Origin: Dictyostelium discoideum
Lineage: Eukaryota
Direction of reading: 5' to 3'
Assembly (NCBI GenBank): GCA_000004695.1
Contig: CM000150.2
Location: 512,001-576,000, forward strand
DNA: 64,000 bases
Shown here one piece after another: positions 8,647 through 49,036 of the stretch. Within the stretch, counting starts at the first letter, position 1; every line of letters starts with the position of its first letter. The position numbers and the translations under genes were made by a program. The notes under the pieces are model-generated. The model was given only the letters and a program-made list of their open reading frames with translations, was not told the origin of the DNA and did no database searches.

Positions 8647-8701
<55 letters not shown>

Positions 8702-8750
8702 CAAAACATTGTTATCTTTTTTTAATTTAGTTATTGTTTATTAATTTAGT

Positions 8751-8971: not shown

Positions 8972-9003
<32 letters not shown>

Positions 9004-10602: not shown

Positions 10603-10641
<39 letters not shown>

Positions 10642-11163
10642 TTAACCAAATTGGGATGTTTCAAACAAAAAATAAAAAAATAGAATATTAGAAAAGAAAT
10701 TTGAATTTCAATGCCCATCTTTAATCATGGTTTTATTAATTAAAAAAAAAAAAAAAAAAAAAATTAAAGAATAAAAAAAAAAAAAATAATAAAATAAAAT
10801 TAGAAATCAAATAAATTAATAAAAAAATAATAAAATAAAATTTTAAAATAATAATAATAATAATTATATCATATTCATTTTGTATTTTTTATTTTTTTAT
10901 TTATTTTTATTTTTTTTTATTTTTTATTTTTTTTTTTTAAAAATATTAAAATACTAATACGAGAATTATTTGAAAAAAAAAAAAAAAAACACTTTCGTTA
11001 AAATTTTAAAAAAAAATCAAAAGATATTTTGAAAAACGGGTGGAAAAAAAAAAAAAAATCGAAAATTTTTTTTTTTTTTTTTTTTTTTATAAACACTAGT
11101 GTTTTTTTTTAATTATCAAACCATAACACTATTATCTAATAAAAATAATAATAATATAATAAA

Positions 11164-11493
11164 ATGAATAAGATTTCATTTGAAATGGTTGATTTAAGAG
11201 AATCATACGACTATGAATTATTGAAAAGGTTTTATAATGAATTAATGATTCCAAATTTTCCAGATGAAAATGAATTAGAACCTTTAGAAAGTTGGGTTGA
11301 AATGTTTGGAAATTTAAATGAAAATAATAATAATAATAATAATAACAATTTAAACTTTTTTAACAATGACAATAACCAAGAAACTATTAATATAAATTTT
11401 GAAAATAATTTATTTTTTGGATCAAATGGTGCTGATGGTGCTGATATAATTGAATATCAAGAAGAAGAAGAACAACAACAACAACAAAAACAA

Positions 11494-11526
<33 letters not shown>

Positions 11527-13381
11527 CTCGATAAAAAAAATAATGAAGATGATGAAGAAAATATTGAATTTCATATAGTTTTATCAATTTGTTCAGAAAA
11601 AGATAGAATTGAAGGACAATCTAATATATTGGGTGGTATTGTATTTGAATATTATCCATCAATAAATTGTGGTTGTATAACTTATATATTGGTTAATGAT
11701 AATTATCGTGGACTTGGGATAGCGAGTAAATTATTAAAAGAATCAAATAATAGATTCAACGATATCGCTAATCGATTTGGACATCTTTCTGGATGTAATG
11801 CAATATTCTTAGAGACAAATTCCGCAGAGAGGGTCAAACCAGAGAATGACGTAATGGATCCATCTAAACGTCATTCAATATTCCATAAAATGGGTATCAG
11901 GTTACTAGATTTCGATTACATTCAACCACCATTATCAAATGATAGTAATAAATGTAAAGATTTATTATTACTATGTTTATTAACTCAAAATATACCAAAA
12001 CAACAAAAATTGAAAATAAATAATAATAATAATAATAATAATAATTCAATTGATAGATATTATTATTTACCAAGTTTATTATTGGAGAGTTTTATTAAAG
12101 TGTTTTGGAAATCATGTTATTCTAGAATCACCCCTAAAATCAATTGGAAAAAAGATGTTGATTATCAAAGAATGGTAGATCAATTAAAGAGAAGAGAAAT
12201 AATACCGTTATTAGATTTACCTTGGAATAGACCTTGGACATTGGTTGACTTAAGAGATAGTTTCAATTCAAATAGATCATTAATCACTAAATTTTATAAT
12301 CAAATTTTAGTACCAAATTTTAAAGGTCATCATGAATTAGAATCACTTGAATCTTGGTTTAAAATGTTACCATTAATAGATAATAATAGCAATACCAATA
12401 ATAGCAATTCTAATGCTAATAATTATAATAATGATTTCTTTCATTTATTAGTTGCATTAAGATATCTAAATGATGATATTGATCATAATCAAGAACCAAT
12501 CATTTGTGGTGGTATTGCATTTGAATATCATCCAAAATCAAATTGTGCATTAATTACTTACTTTTTAATTGGTGGTGGTGAAAATAATCGTTCTGAAATG
12601 ATGGCAAAAGCATTACTTCAAAGATCACTTGAAATCATTGAACAAAATGCAATCGATTGTGGTAATTTAGCTGGTTGTAATGCAATATTTATTGAAAATA
12701 ATAAAAATAATCATAATAATCAAAATAATCAAAATAATAATAATAATACAAAAGAATATTTAAATCAAGATGAAATCATTGAAATATCATATAATTCAGA
12801 ATTTTTAGAGAAATTAGGTTTTATGAAATTAGATTTTAATTATGTTCAACCACCATTATCATTTGAAAAAAGTTCAAGTAATTCTTTAAATTTATTAGTT
12901 TTATTAACTTCGAGAATACCACAAACTATTGATTTAAATTTAATTGAAAATGAAAATGAAAATAATAATATTAATATTAATAATAATAATTATTTACCAA
13001 ATTCATTAATTATTAAATTTATTCAAACATTTTGGGAAAATACAATTAAAAGAAATGAAATTATAAATTTAAATTTATATGAAAATGATTTAAATTTTAA
13101 TATTATGATGGATAGTTTAAAAAGGAAATCTAAAATCCAATTATTAAAATCATCATTAAATTCAAGTTGGGATAATAATTTCACATTAATTGATTTAGCA
13201 GTTGATTTCCATCAAGATTTATTCGACCAATTTTATAATTCATTACCATTTAATAATGAAAATCAAAATCAAAATAATAATAATTATTTAAATATTGAAC
13301 CTAAATCAATATTACAAAAATCCTTATTAAAGAAATCAAATTTTCAAGAAGATATTCATATTTTATTATTAGTTTCATATG

Positions 13382-13450
<69 letters not shown>

Positions 13451-14205
13451 TTTGCCCAACTATATATGGTTCAATTATTTTCTCATATTTTCCAATAAGT
13501 AATTGTGGTTTAATTTCAAATATTTTCATTAAAAGACCACCACCAAGTGAAAATATTAATAATAATAATGAGCATTTTACAAGTTTATATGGTTATTCAA
13601 TTAAAAATAAAAATTATGATATTGGTATTGAATTATTAAATGATTCTATTGGTATTATAAATAGAATATCAACTTCAAAAACTCATATATCCGGTCCGAA
13701 TGCTATATTTTTAGAATGTTCAACAATTACAAATAACTATAGTAGTAGTAATAATAGTAATAATAGTAATAATGATGATAATAGTATAGTTAATAATATA
13801 AAGAAATTTAATGAAAATGAAAATGAAGGTAATTTCATTCAAATTCCATTTAGTAATGAAATTAAAAATCAAGGTTGGTTAATATTAGATTTAAAATATT
13901 ATCAACCACCTAGAAACTCATTAAAATATATTCAAAGTAATGAAAATTTGGAAATATTAGAACAACCACCTTCATTATTATGCGTTTTAAATTGTTTACA
14001 ATTTCCTCACGATATTTCATTACCATCACCATCATTATATATCCCAAAAGATTTATTTAAAAAATTCTTAGCTTCATATTGGACTTCAATTTTCTCAAGA
14101 AATCAAATTTCAATTCAACAATATTCAACAAATAAAAAAAATAATACAAATATTAAATTAAATCAACAATTTAATGAAAAAGATAAAATTTTATTATTAA
14201 ATTAA
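11164..14205 (+). CDS. 1013-aa protein built from three tandem roughly 300-aa GNAT-like (acyl-CoA N-acyltransferase-like) modules. Only module 1 retains a recognisable acetyl-CoA motif (R-x-x-G-x-A).
   Basis: Internal repeats start near aa 1, 360 and 690. Each has an N-terminal 'DLR(D/E)S..(F/L)Y', a Cys-containing core 'C(G/A)xITY', 'GCNAIF(L/I)E' (degraded to 'GPNAIFLE' in module 3) and 'YxQPP'. Module 1 reads YRGLGIASKLL. Single ORF with ATG at 11164. Confidence 0.65.
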
Positions 14206-14530
14206 TAAAATAAAATAAAGAATAAAGAATAAAATAAAATAAATAATAAATAATAATTCACGGGAAAAAATTAAATTAAATTATTCTATAAATTAATGAA
14301 ATTAGGCAATTTTATTATTATTAAATTAATAAAAAAAAAAATAGAGAATAAAGTAAAACAAAGAATAATTATAGAGAAAAATAAATTGATATTAATATTT
14401 ATTTTATTATAAATTAATAAAATAGGGTAATTTTTTTTATTTTTTAATGATTAAAATATGACAAAAACTGTTAAAAAATAAGAAATTACCAATTTTATTA
14501 ATTTCTTTTTTTCTGCGAATAATAATAATT

Positions 14531-14577
<47 letters not shown>

Positions 14578-14606
14578 AATATAATATATAATATTGTTTA
14601 ATTATT

Positions 14607-15617
14607 TTATTTTATTAATTTATCAAATTGTGATGATAATAATTGATAAGTATTTGGACCAGATTTATAATTTGAATCACCTTTAATTTTTGATAATAAT
14701 AATTTTGAATCAGTGTCTGAAATATAAGGGAATGCAATCATGTATGTTTCAGTATCAGGTTTAATATGTGATAAGTAAATTGAATCTAATGTATCTTTAA
14801 TTAATTTTGATTTATTAATATTTTTACCATTACAATTATAATAAATTTCTAATATTTTATTATAATGATTAATATTTAATATAACTTGATTATTTTCGTC
14901 ATTAAATTTCAATAAATTTAAATAGGAATCAACAATTTCAATTATTAAATTTTCAATTCTACTTTCTTGCTCTCTTGTCATTGAAATTGTATTATCATTT
15001 TGAATTTTATTTTGAACCTTAATAATTGAATCGAAAAATAAACTAAATTGATTATTTGTAATTTTTAAATTATTATTATCACTAAATAAAATTGAAAATA
15101 ATTTATCAAATTTTCTATATGATTTTGAATTAAATTCTAATATGAAATCTAATGTTACTTCATTATCACTATCATTATTATTATTATTATTATTATCTAA
15201 TTCTTCAATATATTTAGTAAATATATTATGATATTCATTTTTATTAATATCATTATCATATGAATATCTTGATAATATCATAAAATCATATAACTGTTTT
15301 CCAATTGGTTTGGTTTGATTTAAATAATTTTGAAAATCATCTTTTTTTGGAAATTTTTCAATTATTGATTCAATTGAATATAAATTTCTATTACTATTTT
15401 TTAAATTATCATTTAATATTAATTGTTCAATATCATTTGATTTACCACCACTACTACTACTATAATATCTATTGTTGATATTAAAAATATTATTATTATT
15501 ATTATTTTTATAGTTTCCAATACTACTGTAATTGATGATATTTAAAGTACATAAAAAAGAACAATTTGTTTTTATGGTAGACTTTTTAATTAACTTTTCA
15601 ATTTTTTGGATTTTCAT
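14607..15617 (-). CDS. Hypothetical Asn-rich protein, 336 aa.
   Basis: Clean ORF with a real ATG (minus strand) at 15617 and a stop at 14607-14609. No recognisable motif. Confidence 0.45.
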   Translation of the reverse strand: MKIQKIEKLIKKSTIKTNCSFLCTLNIINYSSIGNYKNNNNNNIFNINNRYYSSSSGGKSNDIEQLILNDNLKNSNRNLYSIESIIEKFPKKDDFQNYLNQTKPIGKQLYDFMILSRYSYDNDINKNEYHNIFTKYIEELDNNNNNNNDSDNEVTLDFILEFNSKSYRKFDKLFSILFSDNNNLKITNNQFSLFFDSIIKVQNKIQNDNTISMTREQESRIENLIIEIVDSYLNLLKFNDENNQVILNINHYNKILEIYYNCNGKNINKSKLIKDTLDSIYLSHIKPDTETYMIAFPYISDTDSKLLLSKIKGDSNYKSGPNTYQLLSSQFDKLIK

Positions 15618-15772
15618 ATGTTTTTGTGTGTGTTTTGCTAAAAGTAAGCTTTTTATGAAAAAAACTATTTCAAAACAAAAAAAAAAAAAAATAAAAGAAA
15701 AATAAAAAAATGAAAAATGTTTAAAAAAAAAAAAAAAAAAATTTAACTTTTATTTTATAAACTTGCTGCAAA

Positions 15773-16397
15773 ATGAATTCTAATAATAATTCCCCCCAAA
15801 GAAAATATGATAATTATAACTATGGTTATCAATATAACCACAATAATAATTACCAATATAATCAAGATAACTACTGGTATAACAATCATTATAATAATAA
15901 TAATCAATATCAATATCAATATCAATATCAATATCAAAACTACAACGATCAACATGGTCAATATTCTCAAGATAATTCATGGTATGATCCAATTCCACCA
16001 AGTCCATTCTTCTTTGAAAATAACCACTATCAAAATGATATCAATTATAATAGAAATCAAATGATTCAAACTTTTAAAGGTTTATTTTTAAATCCAAAAG
16101 GAAATCAACAACCCTTTCCTCCCAATACTATAAACAAAATGTATAACCATAACAATCACCATCACCATCACCATCACCAACAACAACAACAAAACAATCA
16201 ATATGAAGAAAATATTTATAAACAAGACCATGAACACATTGAAAATGAAAATGAAAATGAAAATGAAAATGAAAATGAAAATGAAAATGAAAATGAAAAT
16301 GAAGAAACTTTATTTGAAGAAGAGAACCAAGAATACTGTGAAGAGTATGAAAATGATTATATTGATCATTCTGAAAACTATCATGATTATTATAACC

Positions 16398-34007: not shown

Positions 34008-36149
34008 GTGGCAAGCATCAGTTGGATTAATATTATTAAAGAAATGGAAAGTACCAGTTTCAACTATTTTTACAACTCATGCAACATTATTAGGTAGATA
34101 TTTAGCAGCGGGTGGTGTTGATTTATATAATCAAATGCAAGTTTTAAATATGGATTTTGAAGCATCTAAACGTGGTATCTATCATCGTCATTGGATTGAA
34201 AAGAAGTCTGCTGCTGATTCTCATGTTTTTACAACGGTTTCAGAGATTACTGGTTATGAATCTGAGCATATTTTAATGAGAAAACCAGATGTTATCTTAC
34301 CAAATGGTTTAAAATTAGATAAATTTACTGCACTTCATGAATTTCAAAATTTACATGCAAAATATAAAGTAAGTAATTAATTTATTAAAAAATCAATAGA
34401 TTAATACTAATAAAATAAATACTAAATATATATTTTTATTTTTTATTTTTGAAAAAAAAAAAAAAAAAGGGAGTATTAAATGAATTTGTACGTGGTCATT
34501 TTTATGGACATTATAGTGATTTCGATTTAGATAATACATTATATGTATTTACAGCAGGTAGACATGAATATTTTAATAAAGGAGTTGATATGTTTTTAGA
34601 TTCATTAGCAGGTTTAAATAAATTATTACAACAGAGTGGATCAAAGATGACAGTTGTTGCATTTATAATTATGCCAGCTGCAACTAATAATTTCAATGTT
34701 GAATCATTAAAAGGTCATTCATATCTAAAGGATATGAGACGTACTTGTAATACAATTGTCGAGGCGATGGGTGAACGTTTATTCGAGGCAACGAGTAGGG
34801 GTAAAATGATATCACCAGAGGAACTATTATCACAAGAGGATCTAGTTATGTTAAAGAGAAGAATCTTTGCATTGAAACAAAAGTCAAGTGGTCCACCCGT
34901 TGTAACTCATAATATGATCAATGATAATGACGAAATTCTTCAACATATTAGAAGGATAAAACTATTCAACTCTCAAGAGGATCGTGTAAAGGTTATCTAT
35001 CATCCAGAGTTTTTAACATCCACCAATCCATTGATACCTTTGGATTACACTGAATTCGTTAGAGGCTGTCATCTTGGTATCTTTCCAAGCTACTATGAAC
35101 CATTTGGTATGACCCCCGCCGAATGTTGTGCAAGTGGTTGTCCATCAATCACCAGTAATCTAACTGGTTTCGCAAATTATATGAGTAGAGCACTACAAGA
35201 CACTGACTCTAAAGGTATTTTCATCGTTGATAGAAGATTCAAATCCTCTAGAGAAACTGTTGATCAAATGACTCAATACCTTTGGAAATTCACTCAATTA
35301 GATAGAAGACAAAGAATTGAACTTAGAAATGCAACTGAAAAATTATCTGAACTCTTAGATTGGAGAACTCTTGGTAAATTCTATAAAACTGCTCGTGCTC
35401 TTGCACTAGAAAGAGCTTTTCCACCAAAACCAATCTCAAGATCACCTTCACCTTCACCTTCTTCAAGTTTAAAATTATCAACTGGTTTATCAAATCAAAT
35501 TGAATTACAACAACAACAACAACAACAACAACCACAACCAATTGGTACAACAATTAATTTAATACCACCATCTTCAAATGTTTCAGTAACACCTACTACA
35601 ACACCAACAACTACAACAACTGCAACTACAGCAACTACAGCACCAATCACAACACCAAAACCAAATGTAATTCCAATTAATACTGGTAAAGAAAATATCA
35701 CTTTATTATCACCAAATTCAATGTCTTCACTTTTAAGTGATTCATTAAATGAATTTAAAAAACAACAACAACAACAACAACAATCTAAAACACCAACAAC
35801 ACCAACAACAACATCAACAACGACAACAACACCATCAACTACAGCAGCGGCAACAAATAAATCAGTTTTATCAAATCCAACACCAACACCATCTCCAAAT
35901 ACATCATCATTCATTCCAACAAATAAAGGATCCACAGCAACAACTACAACAACAACAGCAACACCAACACCAACACCAAGTAATAATACTAATGGTAAAC
36001 CATTTAATCCAATTGAAGCATTAACTAAAAGTAACAGTAGTAGTAATTTTGCAACAACTTCAACTGCTTCTGTAAACACCAACAATGGTGGCACTAATTC
36101 ACCAGTATCTAAATCAATACCAATTCCTTCTTCAAAATCATTAAAATAA
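33194..36149 (+). CDS. glcS: Glycogen [starch] synthase (GT3 family), about 878 aa, four exons: join(33194..33472, 33552..33869, 34009..34368, 34470..36149). It has a long Thr/Pro/Gln/Asn-rich C-terminal tail.
   Basis: [30 protein letters not shown]..., AHFHE|[10 protein letters not shown]...[23 protein letters not shown]|[46 protein letters not shown]..., [57 protein letters not shown]. All of this is co-linear with animal/fungal glycogen synthase. Donors GTAAGT/GTAATG/GTAAGT; acceptors are T-rich followed by AG. Confidence 0.85.
33936..34006. repeat. (TTTA)n microsatellite, about 17 units, inside intron 2 of the glycogen synthase gene.
   Basis: 'tttatttatttattta...' runs directly up to the 'ttatttag' acceptor at 34007-08. 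Confidence 0.8.
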
Positions 36150-36245
36150 TAATAAAAAAAAATAAAAAAAAAGACTACAACAATAATTTGAAATTCAAAT
36201 TATTATAAATAAAATTTGTTTGGCAAAATAATTTATATAATAATA

Positions 36246-38335
36246 TTATTCATTTTTTATTTTTTCATTTATTATTTGAATTTTATCTTTTTTTATATTT
36301 GATAATTTAGAACAAAGATAATTTGAAATTAATAAATGAGATTTTTGTTTAATTAATTGATTTTTATCTTTGTTTACAATTTCATCAATTAATGAATCAC
36401 CAGTTTTTTCTAATAATAATTGATAATCTAAACTTGTAAATGAATTTGAAATTTGATTAAATGATTGATTATCTGTTGTTGTTAATCCATTATTAATATC
36501 TAATAATATTAAAAGTTTTGAAAATTCATTTATAGTATTATTGTTATTATTATTATTATTATTATTATCTTGATTAATAATTGGATTTGTTTTTTTTAAT
36601 ATTAATTTAGAAATTGTTAATAAAAAATCAATAATTATTGGTGTAAAAGAATTTTCTTTAAATAAAATTAATTTAAATTGTTGAATTATTAAAGTAATTG
36701 AATCAGAATTAATTTGTTTATCTGGATTATTTAATAAACCAATAAAGTATTGTTTTAAAATTGAAAATTGAATTTGAAGTAATGGGATATCAATAATTGA
36801 AGAAGAAGAGGAATCTGATAATTGTTCTTTAAATTTTTCAATAATTCTTGGTACAAAAACTGATTGATCAATTAATAAACCTAAAATGTAAATGATTTCA
36901 TTGTTTTTCTTTTCAATTTGATCAAAATGATCAACTTTTCTAATTGTTATAATTTCAATGATAGCATCAATGAATCTAATTGAAGGTAATGAACCAAGGT
37001 AACCAATGAATGCCAATAAGAAAGTTTGTTTGAAATCTCTAATATTTTGTTCCAATTCTTGTTCATGAAAACATCTATAAAATCTTTTCATTATTTGTTG
37101 TGAATATTGTAATATTAATTGTCTACTCTTTAAACTAATTATATTATTATCATCATCATTAATAGATTCTCCTTCTTTCTTTTCAGATACTTCATCTTGA
37201 TCAATTAAACGAAAATAATTTAATTTATTTTCAAATTGTTTTTTAATTAATATTGATTGAGAGATATTAAAATTTTTTAAAGTTTCATTATCACCATCAT
37301 TATTATTATTATTATTATTATTATTAATTAATTCATTTTCTCTTTCTTTATAATAATTTGAAGAAATTGAATTTAAAGTTATTATAGCTTGATTACGAAT
37401 TGGTTTAATATCAGAAATTGATAATTCAATTATAACTGGTAATAAAAATTCAAAGTATTGTTGAGTTGTTGGTATTTTCGTACACCATTGTTCAATTGAT
37501 TGTAATAGACGTATTCTAATCTGTGGTGAATTATCAGTTGCTAAAACCATTACCATTGGTTCTAGAGTATTAATGATTTTAATTGAACCTGATAATGCTA
37601 GCGATGATAAGGCTTGTAATGACTCCATTCTGACTCTTTGTTGTCTATTACCAAGATTACCAATTAGTTGGTGTATCAATTCCGATGAGAAATAAATGAT
37701 TCTGTTTGGTACTTTATCAGATAATCTTTGAATTAACTTTGAGCATATCTCCTTTTGATCTGGTGAATTATCACTTAAACTAACTTTAATTATTTTTATT
37801 ATCTTTTCTGTATTCATACTAATACTATTAACACTACCAATTTCAATTATCTTTAAAATTAATTTACAAATTAAATATCTTAATTCTTCAACTTGTTCAT
37901 TATTTATTAAAACTTCTAATTGATAAATTAATTTATTTATTAAATTTTCTGTTAATTTTATTCTATATATATATATATAATAAAAATATTTTTTAATATT
38001 AGTATTATATTATTTTATTAATATTATTATTTTTTTTTTTTTTTTTTTTTTTTTAAATATACTTACTCTAATAAATAAGTTAGTGAAGTAGTTCTTGCCC
38101 TTTCTAAGCTATCAGATAATAAATTTAAGAGTACACTATCATACAAAGTGGTACCATTTTCATTTTCATTGGAAAATAAAATTTCATTTAATGAATCTAA
38201 TTTTGTTGAATTATCTTTGCATGATTCAAGTGCTTGATTTAAACGATCTAATGTCTTTTTCTTTGCAAATGGACTTTGATTTTGAATATTACATAAATCA
38301 CTTTTAATTGATTTTTTAAATTCTTTAAGTTCCAT
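36246..38335 (-). CDS. HEAT/ARM-repeat protein, about 661 aa, two exons: complement(join(36246..37962, 38067..38335)).
   Basis: Exon 1 runs from the ATG at 38335 (MELKEFKKSIKSDL...LERARTTSLTYLLE) to a GTAAGT donor (plus-strand 'acttac' at 38061-66). The acceptor is (TA)nG, AG at 37963-64. Exon 2 encodes IKLTENLINKLIYQLEVLINNEQVEELRYLICKLILKIIEIGSVNSISMNTEKIIK... and helical repeats of about 40 aa. No family-diagnostic motif was found. Confidence 0.5.
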
Positions 38336-38421
38336 TGCAATTAAATTATTACTATTATTTTTATTATTGGTATTTTTAAAAAAGTATCTTTTCAAAAATG
38401 AAATTTTTCAAACACAACACG

Positions 38422-38464
<43 letters not shown>

Positions 38465-38925
38465 GCAAATTAATAAAAAAAATAAATAAACCAATGGTTT
38501 TTAAATAATTAAAAATAAAATAATGGTCTTTAAATAATTAAAAATAAATAAATATCCAGTTCCAATAGTTTCCTCACTTATTGAAGTTTTAATTTTGATG
38601 GAATAAAATAATACCATCATTTTCCAACCACAAATAATCAAAAAGATTAATAAAAATAATAACAATAATTATTTAAATTATTTTTTAAATATTATGATGC
38701 CCTAAAAATAGTGAACCCGTTAAAAAAAAAAAAAAATAATAATAATAATATTAGAAAAAATAAATAAAAATTAAAATAATAAAATAAATAAATAATATCT
38801 TTAATTTGATATTATTTTTTATATCTTAATTTTTAAAATAAGATTTTATTATTCAAACAAATAAAATAAAATAAATAAAATAAAAAATTTGAAATATTTG
38901 GTATTATTACTTTTTTATTTTTTTC

Positions 38926-38998
<73 letters not shown>

Positions 38999-39011
38999 TT
39001 TTTTTTTTTTT

Positions 39012-39412
39012 TTAAGCAGCATATAAATATCTATCAGATTCACCTTCAGCACGAGTAATATACTCTTTTTCAATTAATTGTTCAATGCATTTCTTAATCA
39101 TTGGAATATTTGGTTGGAATCTAAGTCTACTATGTTCGATAACCTCTTGAATGAGAGAAACATGATTCATAGTTTTACGAGCTTTCATAATTCTAACGAT
39201 TGAAGCTTGTAAATAAAGTTTTCTATCTTCATCAATACCTTTATAAGTTTCTTCATTTTGTAATGGTGTTTCCTTTTGTAATGAAGATGAAACCTTTACT
39301 TTTGAACGTTTATTACTATAAGCACTATTAACAGTATATTCTTGAGTTGATGATGATGATGATGATGGTTGCATATTATTTGCTGAATCTACTAAACTAT
39401 TATTACCTTCAC

Positions 39413-39455
<43 letters not shown>

Positions 39456-41607
39456 ACTATTTTGATCTTTTTTCTTTGAAATTAAAATCTTTGCTTCTAT
39501 TAATGATTGTAAAGTTCTTGATAATTCATTTTCATTTAAATTTGTAAATTTAGTGATTTCTTCTAAACTTACAGATTCTTGAGTATTAAAGATTAAAAGA
39601 ATACCCAATTGAAAGTTTGTAACTTGAAAATCGTATGATTTCTTTGCAAAGAATGACTTTGCCTCTGCTTTACATAAATGATGTAACCAATTTAATTTTC
39701 TACCTTGATGTTGGGTTGAATAGTATTGTTGAAATGCTGATATACAAAGTGTTAACTCTTGTGGTACAATGAAACTACTAGTTTGAGAATGTAATGACCA
39801 TGATCCTGATGTTAAAACTAAAATTGAAAAATCGACTATTGGAAAAATAAAAAAATAAAAAAATAAAAAAAAAAAAAAGGAAATTTTTAGTATCACCCAA
39901 CCAAAGTGTATATATATTTTATATTTTATATGTAACAACTTACTTTTACCAATTGATAAACTATTTTTAATTAAATGATTTTTAAACTCTTCATTAGTTT
40001 CTGCTGATAGAGTGATATCGTTAAACATTCTTTGGAATTTAGAGGTATATTCGAAACCACATGCTTGTTTTAAACCTGTGATCATAAACTTTTCAATATC
40101 ATCACTCACTGAAGTACCATTAATTAAACGTCTAGATAACATTTTTGAATAAAATTTTTGAAAAACATCTTTATCATCAACATATTTAAATAATACAATC
40201 TTTTTTTTTTTTTTTTTTTTTTTTTGAAAAAAAAAAATAAAAAATTAGTTTTTTATTTTTTATTTTTTTTTTTTATAATAATTTAAAATTTAACTTACAA
40301 TTTGACCTAACTTCTCTTCCAATTCAATTTCTTCATGTTGTTTATTACCTTTTTTCAATAACATATCACAATATTTTGCCAATAACTCTGGTGATTTAGT
40401 TGTATTCCTAGTGATATGATTTTGATTGAAAATCTTATGACATGCTAAATCTAATACTGTTATGAATGAAACATCATTATTAAATGATTTCTTTATAATT
40501 GAACTAAATTGTAAATAAATTTTTAATAATGTTTCAACATAAATTTTTGGATCCTTTTTTTTTTAAAAAATAAAATAATAAAAAATTAGTTAATAAATTT
40601 AATAAATAAATTTTAAAAAAAAAAAAAACATACAGGATTATTTCTATCAGGAATTGATTTAATTGCATCAATACCAACATGTTGAATATACTTTTGAACA
40701 GTTTCTAATACTGGAGCTAAACCACCTTCAATTCTTGATAATAATTTATACATATTATAGATTTCATCTAATTTTTCATCCTTTAAATAATTGATACATT
40801 CTGATTGTAACAATTCCTTATGCTTTTCGATCAAGATAGAATGTAACAATCTTCTCATTTTATCATGTGATGATGAATTTAAATATTTTTGTGAACGTTG
40901 TTCCTCTTCGTCGATTCTTGTCTCTGCTTTCTTCATATATGAAGAGATACCACTTGATGCTATAAATGCAACTGATTCTCTTGTATAAAATTGTCTAGTA
41001 TTCTCTAAATATGATGCTTCATATTCAATTAAATATAATGTTCTATCTTTATCTACACTATCTAATTTAACTATAATTATTTTTTAAAAAAAAAAAAAAC
41101 AGAAAAAAAAAGAAAAAAAAAAACAGAAAAAAAACAGAAAAAAAAAAATTTAGTTTGTGTATCCAACATCTCTGTCTCTGTTTCTAATAATAACAATAAT
41201 AATATAATAAACTATGTCTACCTACTTAAACTTTCCATGAATTGACTAATAAATTGGTGTTGAACCAATTCACCATCTCTGTCTTTTTGAATTAAAATCT
41301 CTACACATTTTAATACTCTATCTTTAATCTTAAAAAATAATCTCTCTTTCCAAATCATAAGTCCAAGCTAAAAATAAAAATTAAAATTAAAATTAAAATA
41401 ATACATTAATTAATATAAAATCGCTATTTTTTTTTGTTTTGAAGGTGATAATGATAGTGATAGTGGTACACATACAATTTGAATTTCATAAACATCAGGT
41501 GGATGGCCAAACTTTTTATCTAGAATCTTTTTATTAATCCAATTTAAATTCTATTTTTTAAAATAAATAAATAAATAAATCATTAATAAATAATGATGAT
41601 GATGATA

Positions 41608-41642
<35 letters not shown>

Positions 41643-41978
41643 CTGACTGATTGGAATTAATCCCATATAATCAAATGATTATAATTATATATGAAAATAA
41701 TAATATATAATATAATAAATTAATCCTTACTAAATATCTAAAAATAACTTTATTACATAATTCACAACCAGAAAAGAATAATTTCCATTGTTTTAAATAT
41801 TCAGAGATTGTATCTGATTTTGTATCTAAAATTATTAATAAGATTTGATCTACATGTTGTTCGAAAAATTTTTTAATATTTTCATATAATGGTTCACAAT
41901 ATGGTTGAGGTTGTGCTATACAAAGTTTATAAACATCCCTGTTTTTTTTTTGATTTTTTGTTAGTAATTGAATAGTTT

Positions 41979-42013
<35 letters not shown>

Positions 42014-42254
42014 TTTTTTGATATACCATAATGATTAAACATAAAAAATAAAAATAAACAAAAAATTTTTAAATTTAAGAAAAAAAGTAGAAAAATGATT
42101 ATAATTACTCGTATAAAAACATTGCTGAAACATTTTGGGAACCTGTCAATATTTTATAAACTTGATCTGCTATATTTTTCCAAATTGTGTTGAAATCAAT
42201 ATCTTGTCTACCCAATCCATTCATCATCTTTATTTGTATATGTATTGCTTGCAT
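39012..42254 (-). CDS. culC: Cullin-3 homolog, about 780 aa, eight-exon model: complement(join(39012..39835, 39944..40199, 40299..40553, 40634..41070, 41226..41367, 41476..41550, 41731..41938, 42109..42254)).
   Basis: N-terminus [36 protein letters not shown]...MFLYE|DVYKLCI... Middle region NLNWINKK..., [160 protein letters not shown]-terminal neddylation domain [62 protein letters not shown]. It is co-linear with human CUL3. All junctions use GTAAGT, GTATGT, GTAATT, GTAGGT or GTAAGG donors and AG acceptors, and phases are consistent. The symbol is my inference that cullin-3 corresponds to culC. Confidence 0.7.
41608..41654. repeat. (GATT)n/(GACT) microsatellite inside a cullin intron.
   Basis: 'gattgattgattgattgattgattgattgactgactgattgg'. 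Confidence 0.8.
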
Positions 42255-42332
42255 CCAAGCGTTATTATTTGTATAAATTACTATTAGAAATAATTTGGAA
42301 AATAGGGAATGAAAAAAAAAAAAAAAAACCAA

Positions 42333-42364
<32 letters not shown>

Positions 42365-42651
42365 TTAAATTAAAAAAATTTTGGAAAAAATTTTAATTAA
42401 AAAATTTGAAAAAAAAAAAAAAATAAAAAAAAAAAAATAAAAAAATAAAAAAAAAAAAAATTAAAAAAAAAAATAAAAATAAAAATAAATTCTTGGTTGG
42501 TTGATCAAAAATAATAAAATTTTAACCTATTTTTAGTTTTTTTAATTTAATATAACTTTTTTAAATCTTTTTTTTTTTTTTTTTTTTTTTTTAAAACCAT
42601 TAATTTAATTTTTTAAATCTTTTTTTTTTTATTTTTTTAATTTTTTTTTTT

Positions 42652-44085
42652 TTAAAGAATTGAATTTGCTAAAGTAATTTGTTTTTCATCCATAACAACA
42701 GTTGATAATAGTTTATCAATTCTTTCTACAACTTCTTTTGGATAATGTTGATCAATATTTGTAACTTTTTCATGAATTTCAGCTTCAGCTTGAGAGAGAT
42801 AAATTAAGTTATTTGGAGCGCAAGGTTTTTCAGGTCTCCAACGAATGACAATTAAAACTGATGATTGTTGACCAGAGATTCCAGATTTCTTTTCATAGAT
42901 TTCATCAATGATATAACGAATATCCAATGGTCCCATGAATTTTTTAAGATGAGTTGGTGGGGTACGATGCATAATTAAATCCTTCTTGACCAAAAGTTTA
43001 AATAATCTAGTGTACTCTGTCAATGGTGGTGGAGTACGTTTATCTTCTTCCAAAATGGTTTTTATACCAACTATATCATTTAAGACATTGCAAGACATTG
43101 CAGTACCGAAAATTAAAGGTATTGGCATCGAAACGCCAAGTGTTCTTACTCTAAGTGTTGGCTTGACTGCTTGTTCATTTAAAAGTTTTAATTCATCCTC
43201 AGTGAGGGGAATCAGTTTCTTTCTATGCACCTCTGTTGAGTAAACACAAAGAATGCCATCTTGAATGCCATTTAACTTTAGCAATCTTCTAACCTCTCTT
43301 CCGAACGGGCAGCCAAAAGTGTAGGAAATATCGGAAATGTGTACTTTGGTGGGATCCGATGAGGAGCCGGCACCAAAACTTGAGATCACTCTAAGATTCT
43401 CACGTTTGCAGTATGTCAATAGTTCGACCTTGGTTTGAGTGTTATCGATGCAGTCCAATACGTAATCTGGCTTTCCGTGCAATAGTTTAGGTGCTAACTC
43501 GCCTGTGAAGAATGTCTGAATGGCCTCCACCTCTACCTCTGGACATATGTCGTGAAAGTGTTGTTTCATGACCTCCACCTTTGATCTACCCACATCGTTT
43601 CTAGTGGCCAACGCATTTCTATTCAATGATGACAATGTAACGAGATCTGGGTCTATTAATCTCAACTTCTTTACACCACTACGTAATAATACATGTGCAG
43701 CAGCACCGCCAACACCACCCAAACCAACTACAACCACAAATGATTCTCTAATCTTTTCAAAGCCTTCTTCACCATAATATAATTTAGTTCTATCCATTTG
43801 TTCATTAAATATTTCCTCTTGTAATAATGAATCTAAATTTAATGATTCTTTTTTATTTGTTGTAGTTGCTGTACTTGTAAAAACTTCATCTGTATCCATT
43901 TTAATTGATTTATCAATATGTTGATTTGATGGACTTGAATTATTATTATCACCATCATCATCACCACCACCACCACCACCATTCAATGATCTCTTTTTCT
44001 TTTTGGCTGATAATGATGATGTTAAATAGGTTACTGCTGCTCCAACACCTGCTGATAAACCTGCAATTAATAATTTATTCTCCAT
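42652..44085 (-). CDS. ThiF/MoeB-family E1-like enzyme, a probable tRNA threonylcarbamoyladenosine (t6A) dehydratase (TcdA/Tcd1-like) with an N-terminal membrane anchor, 477 aa.
   Basis: Real ATG (minus strand) at 44085. N-terminal hydrophobic helix LLIAGLSAGVGAAVTYL. ThiF nucleotide-binding fold FVVVVGLGGVGGAAAHVLLRSGVKKLRLIDPDLVTLSSLNRNALATRNDVGRSKVEVMKQHF. Overall layout is like yeast TCD1/TCD2. Confidence 0.6.
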   Translation of the reverse strand: MENKLLIAGLSAGVGAAVTYLTSSLSAKKKKRSLNGGGGGGDDDGDNNNSSPSNQHIDKSIKMDTDEVFTSTATTTNKKESLNLDSLLQEEIFNEQMDRTKLYYGEEGFEKIRESFVVVVGLGGVGGAAAHVLLRSGVKKLRLIDPDLVTLSSLNRNALATRNDVGRSKVEVMKQHFHDICPEVEVEAIQTFFTGELAPKLLHGKPDYVLDCIDNTQTKVELLTYCKRENLRVISSFGAGSSSDPTKVHISDISYTFGCPFGREVRRLLKLNGIQDGILCVYSTEVHRKKLIPLTEDELKLLNEQAVKPTLRVRTLGVSMPIPLIFGTAMSCNVLNDIVGIKTILEEDKRTPPPLTEYTRLFKLLVKKDLIMHRTPPTHLKKFMGPLDIRYIIDEIYEKKSGISGQQSSVLIVIRWRPEKPCAPNNLIYLSQAEAEIHEKVTNIDQHYPKEVVERIDKLLSTVVMDEKQITLANSIL

Positions 44086-44316
44086 TATCGATTTTATACT
44101 ATTATAATATTTAAATTTATCAATTTTTTACTGTATCTATTATTTTAATATATAATAAATTTTTTTTATTATATATAATATATATTTATCTTTACAAATA
44201 TATTTTATTTGTTTTTCCTATTTAAACATAATAACAGAATAAAAATAAAAAAATAAATAATTTTGGAAATTAAAAAAATAAAATAAAAAAAAAAAAAAAT
44301 GAAAAACGAATTACTG

Positions 44317-44386
<70 letters not shown>
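44317..44386. repeat. Uninterrupted poly(A) tract of 70 nt.
   Basis: Seen directly. It is the longest homopolymer in the window and lies about 250 bp upstream of the tgr-like gene fragment. Confidence 0.9.
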
Positions 44387-44389
<3 letters not shown>

Positions 44390-44589
44390 TTTCGTTTAAA
44401 TATTTTTAATTTAACAATTTGGAAAAAAATAAAAAAAACGGAAAAAGAAGACATTTTTAAAATTTTATTTTATTTTATTTTATTTTATTTTTAATATGGA
44501 TTTAGTATAGATAAATAAACACTCAAAAATACCATTTTAAAAAAAAAAAAAATTTGATTTAAATGATTTGCTTGGAATTTCACACATTT

Positions 44590-45274
44590 CAAAAATTAAA
44601 TCATCGCTATGATATCCTGATATTAATGGGAATGATAAAGTGGTACTATTAATTAATGGTGTAATAATATTGAATTTAATAACATGTAATTTACCACCAA
44701 TTAATGAAACAAACCAATCATCAATTTTTAATCAAAAATTACTAATAAACACAACAACCACAACTTTTAGTAAAAAGTTATTATTAAAAATAACATTTGA
44801 AGTAAATCATGGAGTGGATTGATTTTTCAATATTCTAAAGATGAAATTCAATATTATGATGATAGTGAAAACTCAAGTGGTAAAACTTTTAATGCTAGCA
44901 CAAATCAAAATAACAAAGGAAACAAGGGAAATGGAATTAATATGAGTATAAGAGATATAGTGTTAATTTGTACTTTAGTGCCTTCTTGTATAATCATAGT
45001 AGTATTTTCGGTAATGGTTTTTTTAAGAATAAGAAGAAAGAGAATAGAACAAATAAATTATCTCAAAAGTATTAAAAAAAGAAATTATTTATCACAAGAA
45101 CAAAAAGAAAAAAATCGTTTAAAAGCAAAAGAAGTTGACAATGAGATCCAAAAAAAAATATTTGAAAATAAATGTTTCATGCTTCAATATGCTACCAGGA
45201 ATGCAACTTATAGAAGTACTGTGGCATGGATGGAAAAAGAGTTAAAAAAACAAGAAGATCAATTAAAAAGTTAA
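44590..45274 (+). pseudogene. Frameshifted 3' remnant of a third tgr-like IPT/TIG glycoprotein gene: last ectodomain segment, TM helix, and a distinct cytoplasmic tail.
   Basis: NLITCNLPPINETNQSSIFNQKLLINTTTTTFSKKLLLKITFE matches NSLTCFLPPFNETRKQSLFNDQKLLLNSSTTIFSKKLLLNVTFE of the genes at 1-6377. At about 44813-44822 a 1-bp deletion relative to the intact copies ('gaagtaaatcatgg' versus 'gaaagtaaaacatgg') shifts the frame and creates a TGA. The +1 frame then continues as IFQYSKDEIQYY..., TM helix IVLICTLVPSCIIIVVFSVMVF, and tail RIRRKRIEQINYLKSIKK.... No 5' two-thirds of the gene is present. Confidence 0.55.
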
Positions 45275-45565
45275 TATTTTTAATTTAAAAAATAAAATAA
45301 AATAAAATAAAATAAAATAAAATAAAATAAAATAAAATAAAATAAAATAAAATAAAAAAAGAAAAGAAAACATTTTCAAAATAAAAAAAAAAATTTTTTT
45401 TTATTTTTTTTTTTATTTATTTTTCAATAAATGCACCAACGTTTTTGAATTGCCTAATTTGAGAAATTAAAATTAATCGAATTAAAAAAAAAAAAAAAAA
45501 AAAAATTGAAATATTAATTTTGAAAAAAAAAACAAATAAACACAAAAATATAATAATAAAATAAA

Positions 45566-46286
45566 ATGGGAATAATCGATCCAAATTCCTCAAAACTACC
45601 AGCAGGTCCAAAATACATTCAATTTGGTGAAATTAAAGATGAATATGATAAAGCAAAATTATTACTTACTCAAGATTTTCCTATGTAAGTTTTTATTTTA
45701 AAAATAAAAAAAATTAAAAAAATAAAAAAAATAAAAAATAAAAAGAGAAATGTTTGTAAACTAATTTTATTATTTTTATTATTATTAATTAAAAAAGGTG
45801 TTTTTCAGCAATATCATCATTATTTGAATGTGAAAAACTAAATGGATATAAACCATCAACAAGTAAAAATGATACCACAAGTAAAAAGTGTAAGAATGAA
45901 AATGCACATTTAAATTTTTGTATACTCTCTTCATTTTGTCCTTCAGAGGCTCAATTATTAATGGAATGCACAAATGGAGTTATACCAACTGATGATAATA
46001 AGTTACCTTCAAAATGTCAAATATATGTAATGTATCATAATTATTATTTTTTTTTTTTTTCTCAACAAGTTATATATATATATATATATATATTATATTT
46101 ATATAATATTAACCAATATCTCTCTCCTCTCCTTTATTTTATAATAAAAAATAGTTTAACTCATTTGATAATTGTTTACAGAGAAAAACAAAAGAATTTG
46201 AACTTAGAGATTCAAAAGAATCTGACCCAGTCTCTCAAGTAATTTATGGTGAACAAACAACCCAAACTGAAGGTAATAATAATTAA
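45566..46286 (+). CDS. ndufa8: NADH dehydrogenase [ubiquinone] 1 alpha subcomplex subunit 8 (NDUFA8)-like twin-CHCH protein, about 159 aa, three exons: join(45566..45684, 45798..46026, 46155..46286).
   Basis: Four C-x9-C motifs: CFSAISSLFEC, CKNENAHLNFC, CPSEAQLLMEC, and CQIYFNSFDNC (this last one spans the exon 2/3 junction). N-terminus MGIIDPNSSKLPAGPKYIQFGEIKDEYDKAKLL resembles the NDUFA8 N-terminus. Donors GTAAGT and GTAATG; acceptors AG at 45796-97 and 46153-54. Confidence 0.5.
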
Positions 46287-46537
46287 AAATAAAAAACACA
46301 TACAATAATATTTAATAATAAACTAAAAAATGTTGGTTTATTTTTACTTGAGGAGGAAGGGGATGAAGAAGGGGGGAGGAGGAATGTTTTTTTTAAATTT
46401 TTTTTTGTTTTCCGTTGTTATATTTGTAAAATTAGATCGAGTTTGAGTTATAGTTTTAATTAAGGTTGTAAAATTGTTTCTTTTTCTTTTTTTTTTTATT
46501 TTTTTTTTTTTTTTATTTTTTCCATTTATTTATTTAT

Positions 46538-47102
46538 TTATTTACCACCATGATGAGTCCAACGTTCACCACAAGATGCACAAACATAAAATAAAGTCAT
46601 ACCATTAGCAGCAGTCATAGATTGAAAGAATGCTGCTTCTCTACCACCACAACTTGGGCATTTTGCTGCTTTTGTACGTGGTAATGTTGGATCTGATGCA
46701 ATATCTTGTGAAATTTGTGTTTTTTCCCTATATATTCATATATTTATATATATATATATTGAACATGTTAGATTATTTATCTATCTATATCTATTTATCT
46801 ATCTATTTATCTATTTATCTATTTATCTATTAATCTAAGTTTAAACTAAACTAAAAACATACATCACAGAATGTCTAATTTCATTTCTATATACACAATT
46901 ATTTGTTGCTTCTTCTTTATGATCACAAATTCTACATGCTAAAAGTAATGTTTTATTGGCTTTATCTGCTTTTGGATATAACATATTATTGCTGTGTGTA
47001 TGTGAATACATTCACGTATGTATCATTAGTATTAAACTCTTTTAATTTTTTTTAATTTTTTTTATTTATACCGTGCACATACCATTCACCACAAAAATTC
47101 AT
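46538..47102 (-). CDS. rpb9: DNA-directed RNA polymerase II subunit RPB9, about 112 aa, three exons: complement(join(46538..46727, 46863..46991, 47083..47102)).
   Basis: N-terminal zinc ribbon MNFCGE|[44 protein letters not shown] (compare yeast [35 protein letters not shown]). C-terminal TFIIS-type ribbon [49 protein letters not shown] lacks the acidic RSADE hairpin of RPC11/TFIIS. Donors GTATGT twice; acceptors 'cacacag' and 'tatatag'. Confidence 0.7.
46776..46833. repeat. (TCTATTTA)n microsatellite in rpb9 intron 2.
   Basis: 'atctatttatctatctatttatctatttatctatttatctattaatcta'. Confidence 0.75.
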
Positions 47103-47491
47103 TTTTTTTTTTCTTTTAATATTATTATATGATAGGGGTATAGGTTTCGCGCTTTTTTTATTTTATGACGTATATAGGGTTTTATTTATTTCTTTATTGG
47201 TAGGGTTTTATTTATTTTAATATTACAATAGGTAGTTTGTTGTATTTGTATGTTTGTATTTGTGTTTGTATTTGTGTTTGTGTTTATGATGTGGTGTGGG
47301 TTTTATATACAGGTATGGTTGTTGTTGTTTAGGTTGATTTAATTATAGTTTATTTGTGGAATGAAATAAAATAAAAATGAAATTTTTTAAAAAAAAAAAA
47401 AAAAAAAATAAAAAATAAAATAAAAAAAAAATTAATTTGAAAAAAAAAAAAAAAAAAATCAAAAAATTGTTTAAACCTACACCATATTTTT

Positions 47492-49036
47492 ATGAGTTCT
47501 CAACAAACAGATAATAACCCAATACCGACAACCACTACAAATAATAATACTAATAATGATAATGATATAGCATCCACCAATAACAATACCAATAATGATG
47601 ATGATTCAACCACCACAAATACATCAACAAACAAACCAAGAAAAAGGTTTGTTATTCCTTCAGCAAGTCAGGCATTAAAAAAAAGTGATCTTTCCATGGT
47701 AGAAATAAATTCAAAATTAAAACAAGCTGAAGAAAATGCAAAACAGGCTGAAGATTTACAAAAATCAAATGCTATCATTTTAACACCAAAATCAACGACA
47801 ACAATGACAACGACAACAACACCTGTACAACAAAGAATGCCAATACCATCAATTCTAGCAAAAAGAAATGTAAATACAACAACAACAACATCAACATCAC
47901 CACTATCAACGTCACCTCCAATATCATCACCATTACAAACACCATACTATTCACCATCATTTGTAAAGAATCCAACATCACCAGCACCAATTAATAAACC
48001 AATTGGACCTTCATTACCAATGAGACCATCATTACCAAAGAAACCAGCAGCCTATTCAACTACATTATCAACATATTCATCATCATCATCATCATATTCA
48101 TCATCAACAACTACACAAAATTATCAACATATTGATAAAATTTATGCAAATTCAAAACAAAGGGGTAGTTTAATGATGAATTCATTCTCAAAGAATATAA
48201 TAATTGAATATAGTGAATTGCAATACCCAGATTTCATATTGAATTCAAATACATTGGTATTCTATTTACCATCATTAAAAACCCATCGTGATAATCCAAA
48301 TTTAATTCAAGATCGTATTAAAGGTTTATCAACACTAATGACCAATAGTGACTCATTCACTTTACGTATACTATTGGTATTTGCTGATTTAAGTGATTCT
48401 GATAATTGTGAACAATTTATAAATGAATTAAATTTAATTGCAATTAAATTACAATTTACATTGATTGTATGTTGGAGTCAAATTGAGGCTGCTAAATATT
48501 TAGAAGCTTATAAAACATTTAATAATCGTGCACCTGACCCAATTAAAGCTCGTGCTCAACCCATTGAATTAGGTGGTAAATCAAAGAATGAGCAAGTCCT
48601 AACTTCAATTAAATCTGTAAATAAAACTGATGCTACAACACTTTTGAAAAATTTTCAAACAATGCAACAAATTTTCACTTGTCAAAAAACTACACTTTCA
48701 AAATTACCTGGTTTTGGTCCTGTAAAAGTTCAAAAGTTTTATAATACAATTAATCAACCTTTTAAAACTAAACCTTCAACAAAAACAACAACAACAACAA
48801 CAACAACAACTACCACTACCACCTCGGCAAATATATCCTCAAATAATAATAATAATAATATTAATACTAATGATGGTAATAATAATAATAATACAATTAA
48901 TAATATTAATTTTAATAATGATGAGAATGAAGTGGATCAAGATCCTCTCAATTTTTCATTTGACTTTGGTGGTAATGGTAATGGTGATGGTGATAGTGAT
49001 GGTGATGGTGAAAGTGAAAATCAAATAAATACTTAA
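47492..49036 (+). CDS. ercc1: DNA excision repair protein ERCC1 homolog, 514 aa, with a long Thr/Asn/Ser-rich N-terminal extension.
   Basis: Conserved central and C-terminal domains: LVFYLPSLKTHRDNPNLIQDRIKGLS...LRILLVFADLSDSD...LIVCWSQIEAAKYLEAYKTF...VLTSIKSVNKTDATTLLKNFQTMQQIF...LSKLPGFGPVKVQKFYNTINQPF (human ...[33 protein letters not shown]...[21 protein letters not shown]). ATG at 47492. Confidence 0.85.
   Translation: MSSQQTDNNPIPTTTTNNNTNNDNDIASTNNNTNNDDDSTTTNTSTNKPRKRFVIPSASQALKKSDLSMVEINSKLKQAEENAKQAEDLQKSNAIILTPKSTTTMTTTTTPVQQRMPIPSILAKRNVNTTTTTSTSPLSTSPPISSPLQTPYYSPSFVKNPTSPAPINKPIGPSLPMRPSLPKKPAAYSTTLSTYSSSSSSYSSSTTTQNYQHIDKIYANSKQRGSLMMNSFSKNIIIEYSELQYPDFILNSNTLVFYLPSLKTHRDNPNLIQDRIKGLSTLMTNSDSFTLRILLVFADLSDSDNCEQFINELNLIAIKLQFTLIVCWSQIEAAKYLEAYKTFNNRAPDPIKARAQPIELGGKSKNEQVLTSIKSVNKTDATTLLKNFQTMQQIFTCQKTTLSKLPGFGPVKVQKFYNTINQPFKTKPSTKTTTTTTTTTTTTTSANISSNNNNNNINTNDGNNNNNTINNINFNNDENEVDQDPLNFSFDFGGNGNGDGDSDGDGESENQINT

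Follow-up and report, generated by a model that had tools for sequence, protein, structure and literature searches.

Remains of a tgrO-type gene on Dictyostelium discoideum chromosome 1, probably left in place by deletion and inversion

Introduction

How did a short, frameshifted 3' fragment of a glycoprotein gene come to lie beside a ThiF-family gene in Dictyostelium discoideum, 38 kb from two intact relatives? The fragment sits in a 64,000-nucleotide stretch of DNA (the window, by which we mean the whole stretch; positions 512,001 to 576,000 of contig CM000150.2, assembly GCA_000004695.1), which exact protein look-ups trace to AX4 chromosome 1 and which has a G+C content of about 20%. The original prediction, made from the sequence alone, saw in the fragment a sign that its family is dispersing and decaying at this locus. 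Here, we ask whether the fragment travelled to this place or is what remains of a gene that once stood there.

The question bears on a family in which partial genes are common. The tgrAHIO members of the Tgr (tiger) family are numerous and often partial (PMC12745789; bioRxiv 10.1101/2025.10.22.684067), and intact tgr loci differ between related strains (bioRxiv 10.1101/2025.10.22.684067). A preprint supplement tabulates tgrO1 to tgrO4 (bioRxiv 10.1101/2025.10.22.684067). A literature search on tgrO1 and on DDB_G0267678, the gene model annotated within the fragment, found no papers.

Results

The intact copies in the window are tgrO-type genes

The two intact copies occupy positions 1-6377 of the window. 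Both are matched by Pfam Ig_TgrO1 and are therefore tgrO-type Tgr genes, so that the glycoprotein family of the original prediction is the Tgr family. The open reading frame (ORF) at 3177-6377 corresponds to a superseded, unspliced model (MetaClust/UniParc UPI00004E2A6A, 1066 aa), which clusters at 90% or above with the Ig E-set protein XP_647198.2/Q55GI6 (P0007, 1038 aa). An exact protein match identifies the ORF at 6710-8050 as DDB_G0267656. From accession numbering and gene lengths, we infer that copy 1 may be tgrO2 (DDB_G0267654) and copy 2 tgrO3 (DDB_G0268304). A further AX4 protein encoded outside the window, Q55GQ0 (XP_647134.1; P0146), is probably tgrO4 (DDB_G0268284, 3117 nt), given the accession numbering and the length of 3117 nt in the supplement.

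The fragment comprises an inverted and a direct piece of one gene type

The fragment consists of two pieces of tgr sequence in opposite orientations, set between a ThiF-family gene and a 159-aa gene. Its features are, in window coordinates:

42652..44085, minus strand: ThiF-family gene DDB_G0268496, the left neighbour (477 aa), an exact match to XP_647213.1 and the synteny anchor
44086..44556, no strand: older ThiF upstream spacer, which the loci of ACTFIR, ACTFIW and ACTFIY have in common as far as about 44552-44561 (blastn ends, multiple alignment)
44317..44386, plus strand: A70 homopolymer within the older spacer, outside the tgr relic (run-length comparison across genomes)
44557..44561, no strand: junction A, ATTTA microhomology between spacer and inverted piece (8/9 matches if extended to TTTRATTTA)
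44557..44661, minus strand: inverted internal tgr piece, whose minus strand encodes TPLINSTTLSFPLISGYHSDDLIFEMCEIPSKSFK, aa 581-616 of ACTFIR_005551
44660..44661, no strand: junction B, the head-to-head meeting point of inverted and direct piece, with TG microhomology (overlapping blastn end points, sequence comparison)
44660..45271, plus strand: direct 3' piece of a tgrO-type gene, approximately aa 741-945 of ACTFIR_005551
44677..44678, plus strand: 14-nt frame-breaking deletion; lost is ATTAATTTAACAAC (alignment) or TTAATTTAACAACA (equivalent placement), part of the INLTT codons
44800..44801, plus strand: 1-nt deletion, AAA to AA, which splits ...KITFE from SKSWSG... and is also present in ACTFIT
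44942..45274, plus strand: annotated coding sequence DDB_G0267678 (XP_647214.1, Q55GH0), a 110-aa 'hypothetical protein' (exact look-up)
44957..45025, plus strand: transmembrane helix IVLICTLVPSCIIIVVFSVMVFL, aligned to the helix of Q55GQ0 and ACTFIR_005551
45265..45274, plus strand: junction C, A5 microhomology at 45265-45269 and new stop AGT TAA, the scar of a 421-bp deletion
45275..45566, no strand: original 3' flank of the gene, with an (AAAAT)13 microsatellite at 45289-45353, collinear with the ACTFIR locus (L007) from 13341 onward
from 45567: right neighbour, the 159-aa gene (gene order)

Depending on whether its start is placed at 44548 or 44557, the inverted piece measures about 105-114 nt. 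From the last IPT/TIG domain, of which it has the C-terminal half, the direct piece runs through a stalk and the transmembrane helix into the tail, which it covers for ~83 residues. The transmembrane helix and the open tail frame had been recognized correctly in the original prediction, which credited the fragment with roughly 50 ectodomain residues; about 95 are in fact represented. The tail frame remains open to the TAA at 45272-45274, and the 421-bp deletion that ends it took the last ~93 codons together with 142 nt of 3' flank. At the other end, the 5' ~80% of the tgr gene is gone from the AX4 site. When aligned to full-length Tgr tails, DDB_G0267678 proves to be the transmembrane helix and truncated tail of this relic, read from an internal Met.

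A 1-bp deletion had been proposed to break the frame at a conserved segment, and it is found exactly there (GAAAGT to GAAGT, FE|SKSWSG). Other lesions had been overlooked, namely the 14-nt deletion after 44677, the inverted piece and the 3' truncation. The gene's frame is thus interrupted by the 14-nt and 1-nt deletions and by the inverted segment, and it is truncated at both ends. Inspection for an intron that might bypass the frameshift yielded a sole GT...AG candidate, whose length of 39 nt is both insufficient and divisible by three, so that the frame would not be restored.

Compared with the architecture of Tgr proteins, the relic has neither the signal peptide nor the Ig_TgrO1 (PF24612) and IPT/TIG (PF01833) ectodomain repeats, and it retains the single transmembrane helix followed by a cytoplasmic tail, the latter without its last ~93 residues. 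A Pfam search of the relic detected no domain above noise; the last TIG domain spans aa 702-780 of ACTFIR_005551, and the direct piece begins within it. Homology to Tgr proteins is significant for both pieces.

The relic belongs with tgrO4-like proteins and carries their standard tail

Protein identities were determined with the direct piece after repair of its frame (198 residues). It is 90.4% identical to Q55GQ0 (blastp, E 4e-116), 85.9% to ACTFIR_005551 and ACTFIW_007456 (P0147 and P0156) and 78.7% to ACTFIY_008694 (P0149), as against 49% to window copy 1 and 40% to copy 2. The inverted piece shows 94-97% identity to Q55GQ0 (94%), ACTFIR_005551 and ACTFIW_007456 in blastx, and 82% to copy 2 at 5113-5005 (blastn/tblastn). 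Kinship with the intact copies, as originally proposed, was confirmed at the nucleotide level: positions 44660-44878 align to copy 2 at 5484-5720 with 75.5% identity (blastn, E 1e-44), the homology starting at ~44660, and the range over copies 1 and 2 is 75-79%. With full-length copy 2 as query, 19 family members are recovered, Q55GQ0 and ACTFIR_005551 among them. Judged by these identities, the relic belongs to a tgrO lineage other than that of the window copies and was not copied from them; its closest AX4 paralogue is probably Q55GQ0, that is, tgrO4.

The tail of the relic (RIRRKRIEQINYLKSIKKRNYLSQEQKEK...) had been described as novel and as the third distinct cytoplasmic sequence at the locus. 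This description fails, given the identities of 90% to Q55GQ0 and 86% to ACTFIR_005551: the sequence constitutes the first ~83 residues of the standard tail of the sub-lineage of Q55GQ0, ACTFIR_005551, ACTFIY_008694 and ACTFIW_007456. These full-length members run on past ...EDQLK with NDNIEASSSGQNQQQ... (NDNIEASSSGQ...) for ~85-95 more residues. How easily an impression of novelty arises can be seen from a word-indexed search with the repaired fragment, which returned only the two local gene models and passed over the 90%-identical Q55GQ0. An exhaustive comparison of the 151-aa ORF with representative proteins, clustered at 50% identity and hence without close relatives, yielded a D. firmibasis Tgr protein (E 8e-10) and otherwise weak matches only. 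Q55GQ0 has the same transmembrane helix and tail sequence as the relic, but unlike the relic it spans the full length of 1038 aa, including a signal peptide, both Ig_TgrO1 and TIG domains and a tail longer by ~85 residues. Its gene lies on chromosome 1, ~63 gene models from the relic.

A full-length gene occupies the same site in other genomes

Orthologues of the ThiF-family gene DDB_G0268496 were used to fetch the corresponding loci (L002-L006) from other genomes. In ACTFIR (L002, L007), the order in window orientation is Cullin, ThiF, ankyrin/kinase gene, Tgr, 159-aa gene and TFIIS-type gene, with an ankyrin-repeat protein kinase of 1083 aa on the minus strand and the full-length Tgr protein ACTFIR_005551 (1040 aa) on the plus strand. 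ACTFIW (L004) is collinear with ACTFIR. Alignment of the window to L007 by blastn resolves the site into blocks: the left flank (42000-44505 to L007 1760-4216), the inverted piece (44548-44661 to 11927-11814, 95.6% over 114 nt), the direct piece (44660-45278 to 12293-12919, 30 of ~610 aligned nt being substituted) and the right flank (45265-48000 to 13341-16082). Nucleotide identity of the syntenic ACTFIR gene to both relic pieces is ~95%.

ACTFIR_005551 and ACTFIW_007456 thus share with the relic the neighbouring gene to either side and the 3' flank; unlike the relic, they are intact (1040-1043 aa) and paired with the ankyrin/kinase gene that is lost from AX4. The presence of a full-length gene at the exact site, with a contiguous 3' flank, argues that the AX4 fragment is the positional orthologue of that gene and not a copy moved from the tandem pair 38 kb away. 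Conserved flanking genes and DNA shared with an intact orthologue, the hallmarks of an unprocessed pseudogene, are found through both ACTFIR and ACTFIW.

Elsewhere, the content of the site differs. ACTFIY carries a tgrO3-like inverted relic at the same intergenic site, and 1.5 kb of extra ACTFIY sequence (L005 5054-6597) showed no homology to the ACTFIR kinase gene. In ACTFIY L008, a tgrO gene has the ankyrin/kinase partner at its side. In D. citrinum (L006) and D. purpureum (L003), ThiF directly adjoins a 166-aa or 170-aa gene, which is followed by a TFIIS/RPB9-type gene, and tblastn gave no Tgr match at the site. Their arrangement without tgr is, from this comparison, the older state.

The poly(A) run belongs to the older spacer

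As the original prediction had noted, a poly(A) run precedes the fragment: an uninterrupted A70 stands at 44317-44386, 170 nt from the relic, and is one of 22 stretches of A or T in the window that reach 25 nt or more. A connection between run and fragment is not supported by comparison, in which the run falls into the older ThiF upstream spacer. At the orthologous place, it measures 70 nt in AX4, 36 in ACTFIT, 26-28 in ACTFIR, ACTFIW and ACTFIY and at most 17 in D. citrinum and D. purpureum. That a run is kept in the spacer whatever the tgr content of the genome argues against a link to the fragment. The A70 is rather a length-variable promoter-region homopolymer that expanded within the older spacer, unlinked to the relic.

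The lesions are genuine and the surviving frame is most likely non-functional

An independent assembly, ACTFIT (GCA_054883475.1, L001), is base-for-base identical to AX4 over 44388-45400, so that every junction and the two frameshifts recur in it; the assemblies differ by ~18 substitutions in the 7.7-kb left flank and in the length of the A run. The frameshift is therefore not a sequencing error. The pseudogene status first proposed would have given way to a small functional paralogue if resequencing had restored the missing base and an upstream exon had come to light. ACTFIT carries the same 1-nt deletion, and an upstream exon is impossible with the 5' part of the gene deleted, so that this status is upheld.

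Two annotation pipelines call a gene at the relic, of 110 aa in AX4 and 158 aa in ACTFIT. The latter is a two-exon model whose first exon is 5 nt long, and because it needs such an exon we regard it as a prediction artefact. Exact-product look-ups of the 110-aa ORF, the 151-aa ORF and Q55GQ0 returned no record in other assemblies.

The 30 substitutions between relic and ACTFIR comprise 26 nonsynonymous and 4 synonymous differences (dN 0.055, dS 0.038, dN/dS ~1.5). Only 6.7% of the possible substitutions in the 157-codon frame create a stop, and its survival as an open frame is thus not unexpected: the probability is 0.25-0.5 after 10-20 substitutions and ~35% after ~15. The relic branch has 7 private amino acid changes, as against 9 for Q55GQ0 and 16 for ACTFIR_005551, and shows no acceleration, which suggests recent decay, exchange with tgrO4 or a tail that may still be constrained. 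The relic is also nearer to its distant AX4 paralogue Q55GQ0 (90%) than to the syntenic ACTFIR gene (86%), a relationship that would fit concerted evolution or a lineage-specific duplication. Its sequence is a mosaic: over its first ~58 residues, the ectodomain part does not differ from the ACTFIR orthologue, and the tail is nearer to Q55GQ0. All in all, the 157-codon frame of DDB_G0267678 is most likely a non-functional pseudogene relic. It is unlikely that the relic is active, be it through expression of DDB_G0267678 from the ThiF-side spacer and modulation of TgrO4-type signalling, or through gene conversion with tgrO4 ~150 kb away, to which the mosaic of ACTFIR-like ectodomain and tgrO4-like tail gives a hint.

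Discussion

We propose, with a probability of roughly 0.87, that a full-length tgrO-type gene, the positional orthologue of ACTFIR_005551 and ACTFIW_007456, once stood here and that 44557-45274 is what remains of it in place. An ancestor inside the D. discoideum clade carried a divergent pair between ThiF and the 159-aa gene, with the ankyrin/kinase gene pointing leftward and the tgrO gene rightward; this ancestral state is read from fairly distant relatives, ACTFIR and ACTFIW being ~8-10% diverged from AX4 in the region. Compared with the ACTFIR arrangement, the AX4 lineage lost ~7.6 kb, in which lay the kinase gene and the initial ~1.8 kb of tgr; it kept an internal piece of ~105-114 nt, now inverted, while the 365 bp that followed disappeared and 613 nt stayed in direct orientation. 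A separate 421-bp deletion removed the end of the coding sequence and the adjoining 142 nt of flank and created the stop AGT TAA, and the 14-nt and 1-nt deletions broke what was left of the frame.

Microhomology of 2-5 nt is present at all three rearrangement junctions (A, B and C). It points to microhomology-mediated end joining (MMEJ) or template switching, or to an inversion followed by a deletion. The outcome could have been reached in one multi-break or template-switch event (MMEJ or FoSTeS/MMBIR-like) or by a 7.7-kb inversion and a subsequent 7.9-kb deletion, routes which lead to the same end product and which the sequence does not separate. The pattern of deletion, short inverted segment and deletion with 2-5 nt of microhomology is that of complex deletion-inversion rearrangements of the MMEJ and FoSTeS/MMBIR type, with the difference that the mechanism is here deduced from the junctions alone.

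Against this stands the proposal that a 3' fragment was copied from the tandem copies at 1-6377, dispersed over 38 kb and is now decaying. Relic and copies do belong to the same family and lie on the same chromosome arm, they share the 75-79% nucleotide identity over 44660-44878, and tgrAHIO genes are reported often to insert at new locations (PMC12745789). Such a copy should resemble its source, however, and at the protein level the relic is at 40% and 49% with copies 2 and 1 and at 86-90% with ACTFIR_005551 and Q55GQ0; the syntenic ACTFIR gene matches it at ~95% of nucleotides and passes into the same contiguous 3' flank, and the exact site is occupied by a full-length gene in ACTFIR and ACTFIW. 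We consider a dispersed copy very improbable, and of the original claim it is the decay that stands, in the form of a piece of a dead Tgr gene, and not the dispersal, since the relic was left by deletion in place and is of a different tgrO lineage. If the relic were a processed (retro-)pseudogene, or if the poly(A) run marked an insertion mediated by a transposon, a 70-nt A run nearby would be accounted for, and DDE transposase genes do adjoin a related tgrO gene at another ACTFIY locus. Yet the run lies on the 5' side of the direct piece, and for a tail of the inverted one its strand is the wrong one; it stands inside a spacer conserved regardless of tgr content; the 3' end of the relic continues into the parent gene's own genomic flank, where a processed pseudogene would have none, and target-site duplications and a 3' poly(A) are both absent. 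This origin has next to no probability. The same holds for a chimeric join or homopolymer miscall in the AX4 assembly: the region is AT-rich and filled with homopolymers, and the frameshift concerns an A run of 2 versus 3, but the junctions and both frameshifts recur in the independent ACTFIT assembly, where only the length of the A run differs.

A functional role for DDB_G0267678, as a small single-pass membrane protein that modulates TgrO4-type signalling or serves as a decoy in it, or as a locus that donates sequence to tgrO4 by gene conversion, is quite improbable. A 157-codon open frame in a genome of ~20% G+C, annotated in both AX4 and ACTFIT and identical in the two assemblies, would agree with it, as would the mosaic, with a tail nearer to Q55GQ0 than to the syntenic orthologue. 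The product would, however, lack signal peptide and ectodomain, and would start at an internal Met in AX4 or require the 5-nt first exon in ACTFIT. The dN/dS of ~1.5 and an open frame expected by chance also weigh against it, as do protein searches that found no homologous small protein beyond the AX4 and ACTFIT models, look-ups that found no exact-product record in other assemblies, and the observation that most tgr genes are barely expressed (bioRxiv 10.1101/2025.10.22.684067).

We thus return to the loss of a gene in place. The relic is an ordinary case of gene death, in a family whose members are known to arise and vanish quickly. It resembles the pseudogenes and truncated genes of AX4 such as tgrC_ps1, tgrB2 and tgrC2-C5, which are likewise products of birth-and-death turnover; unlike these, it lies outside the tgrBC hotspot and is annotated as an unrelated 'hypothetical protein', apparently not as a tgr pseudogene. 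For curation, DDB_G0267678/Q55GH0 can be relabelled as a tgrO pseudogene relic. The locus offers a cleanly resolved case of tgr gene death outside the tgrBC hotspot, with base-level junctions and a partner kinase gene that was lost as well. One and the same intergenic site holds a full-length tgr gene (ACTFIR, ACTFIW), an inverted relic (ACTFIY) or none (D. citrinum, D. purpureum). If the relic exchanges sequence with tgrO4, it would represent a reservoir of variation, as has been proposed for tgrB/C fragments. What is new here is local, namely the re-interpretation of DDB_G0267678, the base-level structure of the deletion-inversion and the lineage-varying tgr content of the site; the published, family-wide picture of rapid tgrAHIO turnover is one that the relic fits and does not alter.

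The ThiF site and the tandem tgrO genes

The corresponding spacer between the ThiF-family gene and a 161-aa gene in ACTFIY (D. cf. discoideum, GCA_054859205.1; locus L005) holds another tgr relic, in the orientation opposite to that of the AX4 relic:

L005 3696-5053 and 5054-6597: tgr relic and adjoining extra sequence

Part of this relic is 94% identical to window 4478-5362, which lies in the tgrO3-like copy 2 of the tandem pair, and this part is joined to the copy 2 tail repeats (window 6094-6417), with no transmembrane region in the relic. The relic is followed by approximately 1.5 kb of unrelated sequence; this contains an extended (GTT)n repeat and a predicted 129-aa gene. Since the ACTFIY relic is tgrO3-like, the ThiF site has carried tgr sequences from two sub-lineages.

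The tandem tgrO copies themselves (window 185-2098 and 3060-6377) share 93% protein identity across their common part and differ in their cytoplasmic tails. Copy 1 stops after a short tail, KRNKTKHSKNMSSKEKELMKQ, and copy 2 has (QIQPQNNQxNIINNxEGSS)n repeats. P0138 (ACTFIY_010726), a gene model of 1710 aa with repeated N-terminal segments, looks like two to three tandem tgrO-type genes, or pieces of them, merged into one protein; the model is probably an annotation fusion spanning a tandem array.

Simple repeats flanking the AX4 relic

The relic stop codon is directly followed by a microsatellite:

Window 45289-45353: (AAAAT)13, 3' of the relic

The intact ACTFIR gene has a shorter form of this microsatellite in its own 3' flank, which indicates that the (AAAAT)n tract is older than the decay of the relic. 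The A70 run (44317-44386) is longer than any other A or T run of the window; its counterpart in ACTFIT, an assembly closely related to AX4, is A36 (L001 7696-7731). This length difference could reflect genuine polymorphism or a homopolymer error of long-read sequencing.

Diverged assemblies and the kinase/Tgr gene pair

Across window 35500-48000, genes included, ACTFIR (L002/L007) and ACTFIW (L004), both labelled 'Dictyostelium discoideum', share no more than about 90-92% identity with AX4. This divergence greatly exceeds the within-species figure of about 0.3% (bioRxiv 10.1101/2025.10.22.684067), and the two assemblies are probably to be counted among the diverged tropical 'discoideum-clade' isolates (PMC12745789).

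At two separate loci, a leftward ankyrin-repeat protein kinase gene (approximately 1083-1096 aa) and a rightward tgrO4-type Tgr gene form a divergent pair:

L007 (ACTFIR) 4823-13198: in ACTFIR and ACTFIW, between the ThiF-family gene and the 159-aa gene
L008 5022-13066: ACTFIY, adjoining a polyketide synthase gene and two DDE_Tnp_4/DDE_Tnp_1 transposase-like genes

The kinase and tgrO4-type genes may move or be duplicated together as a unit.
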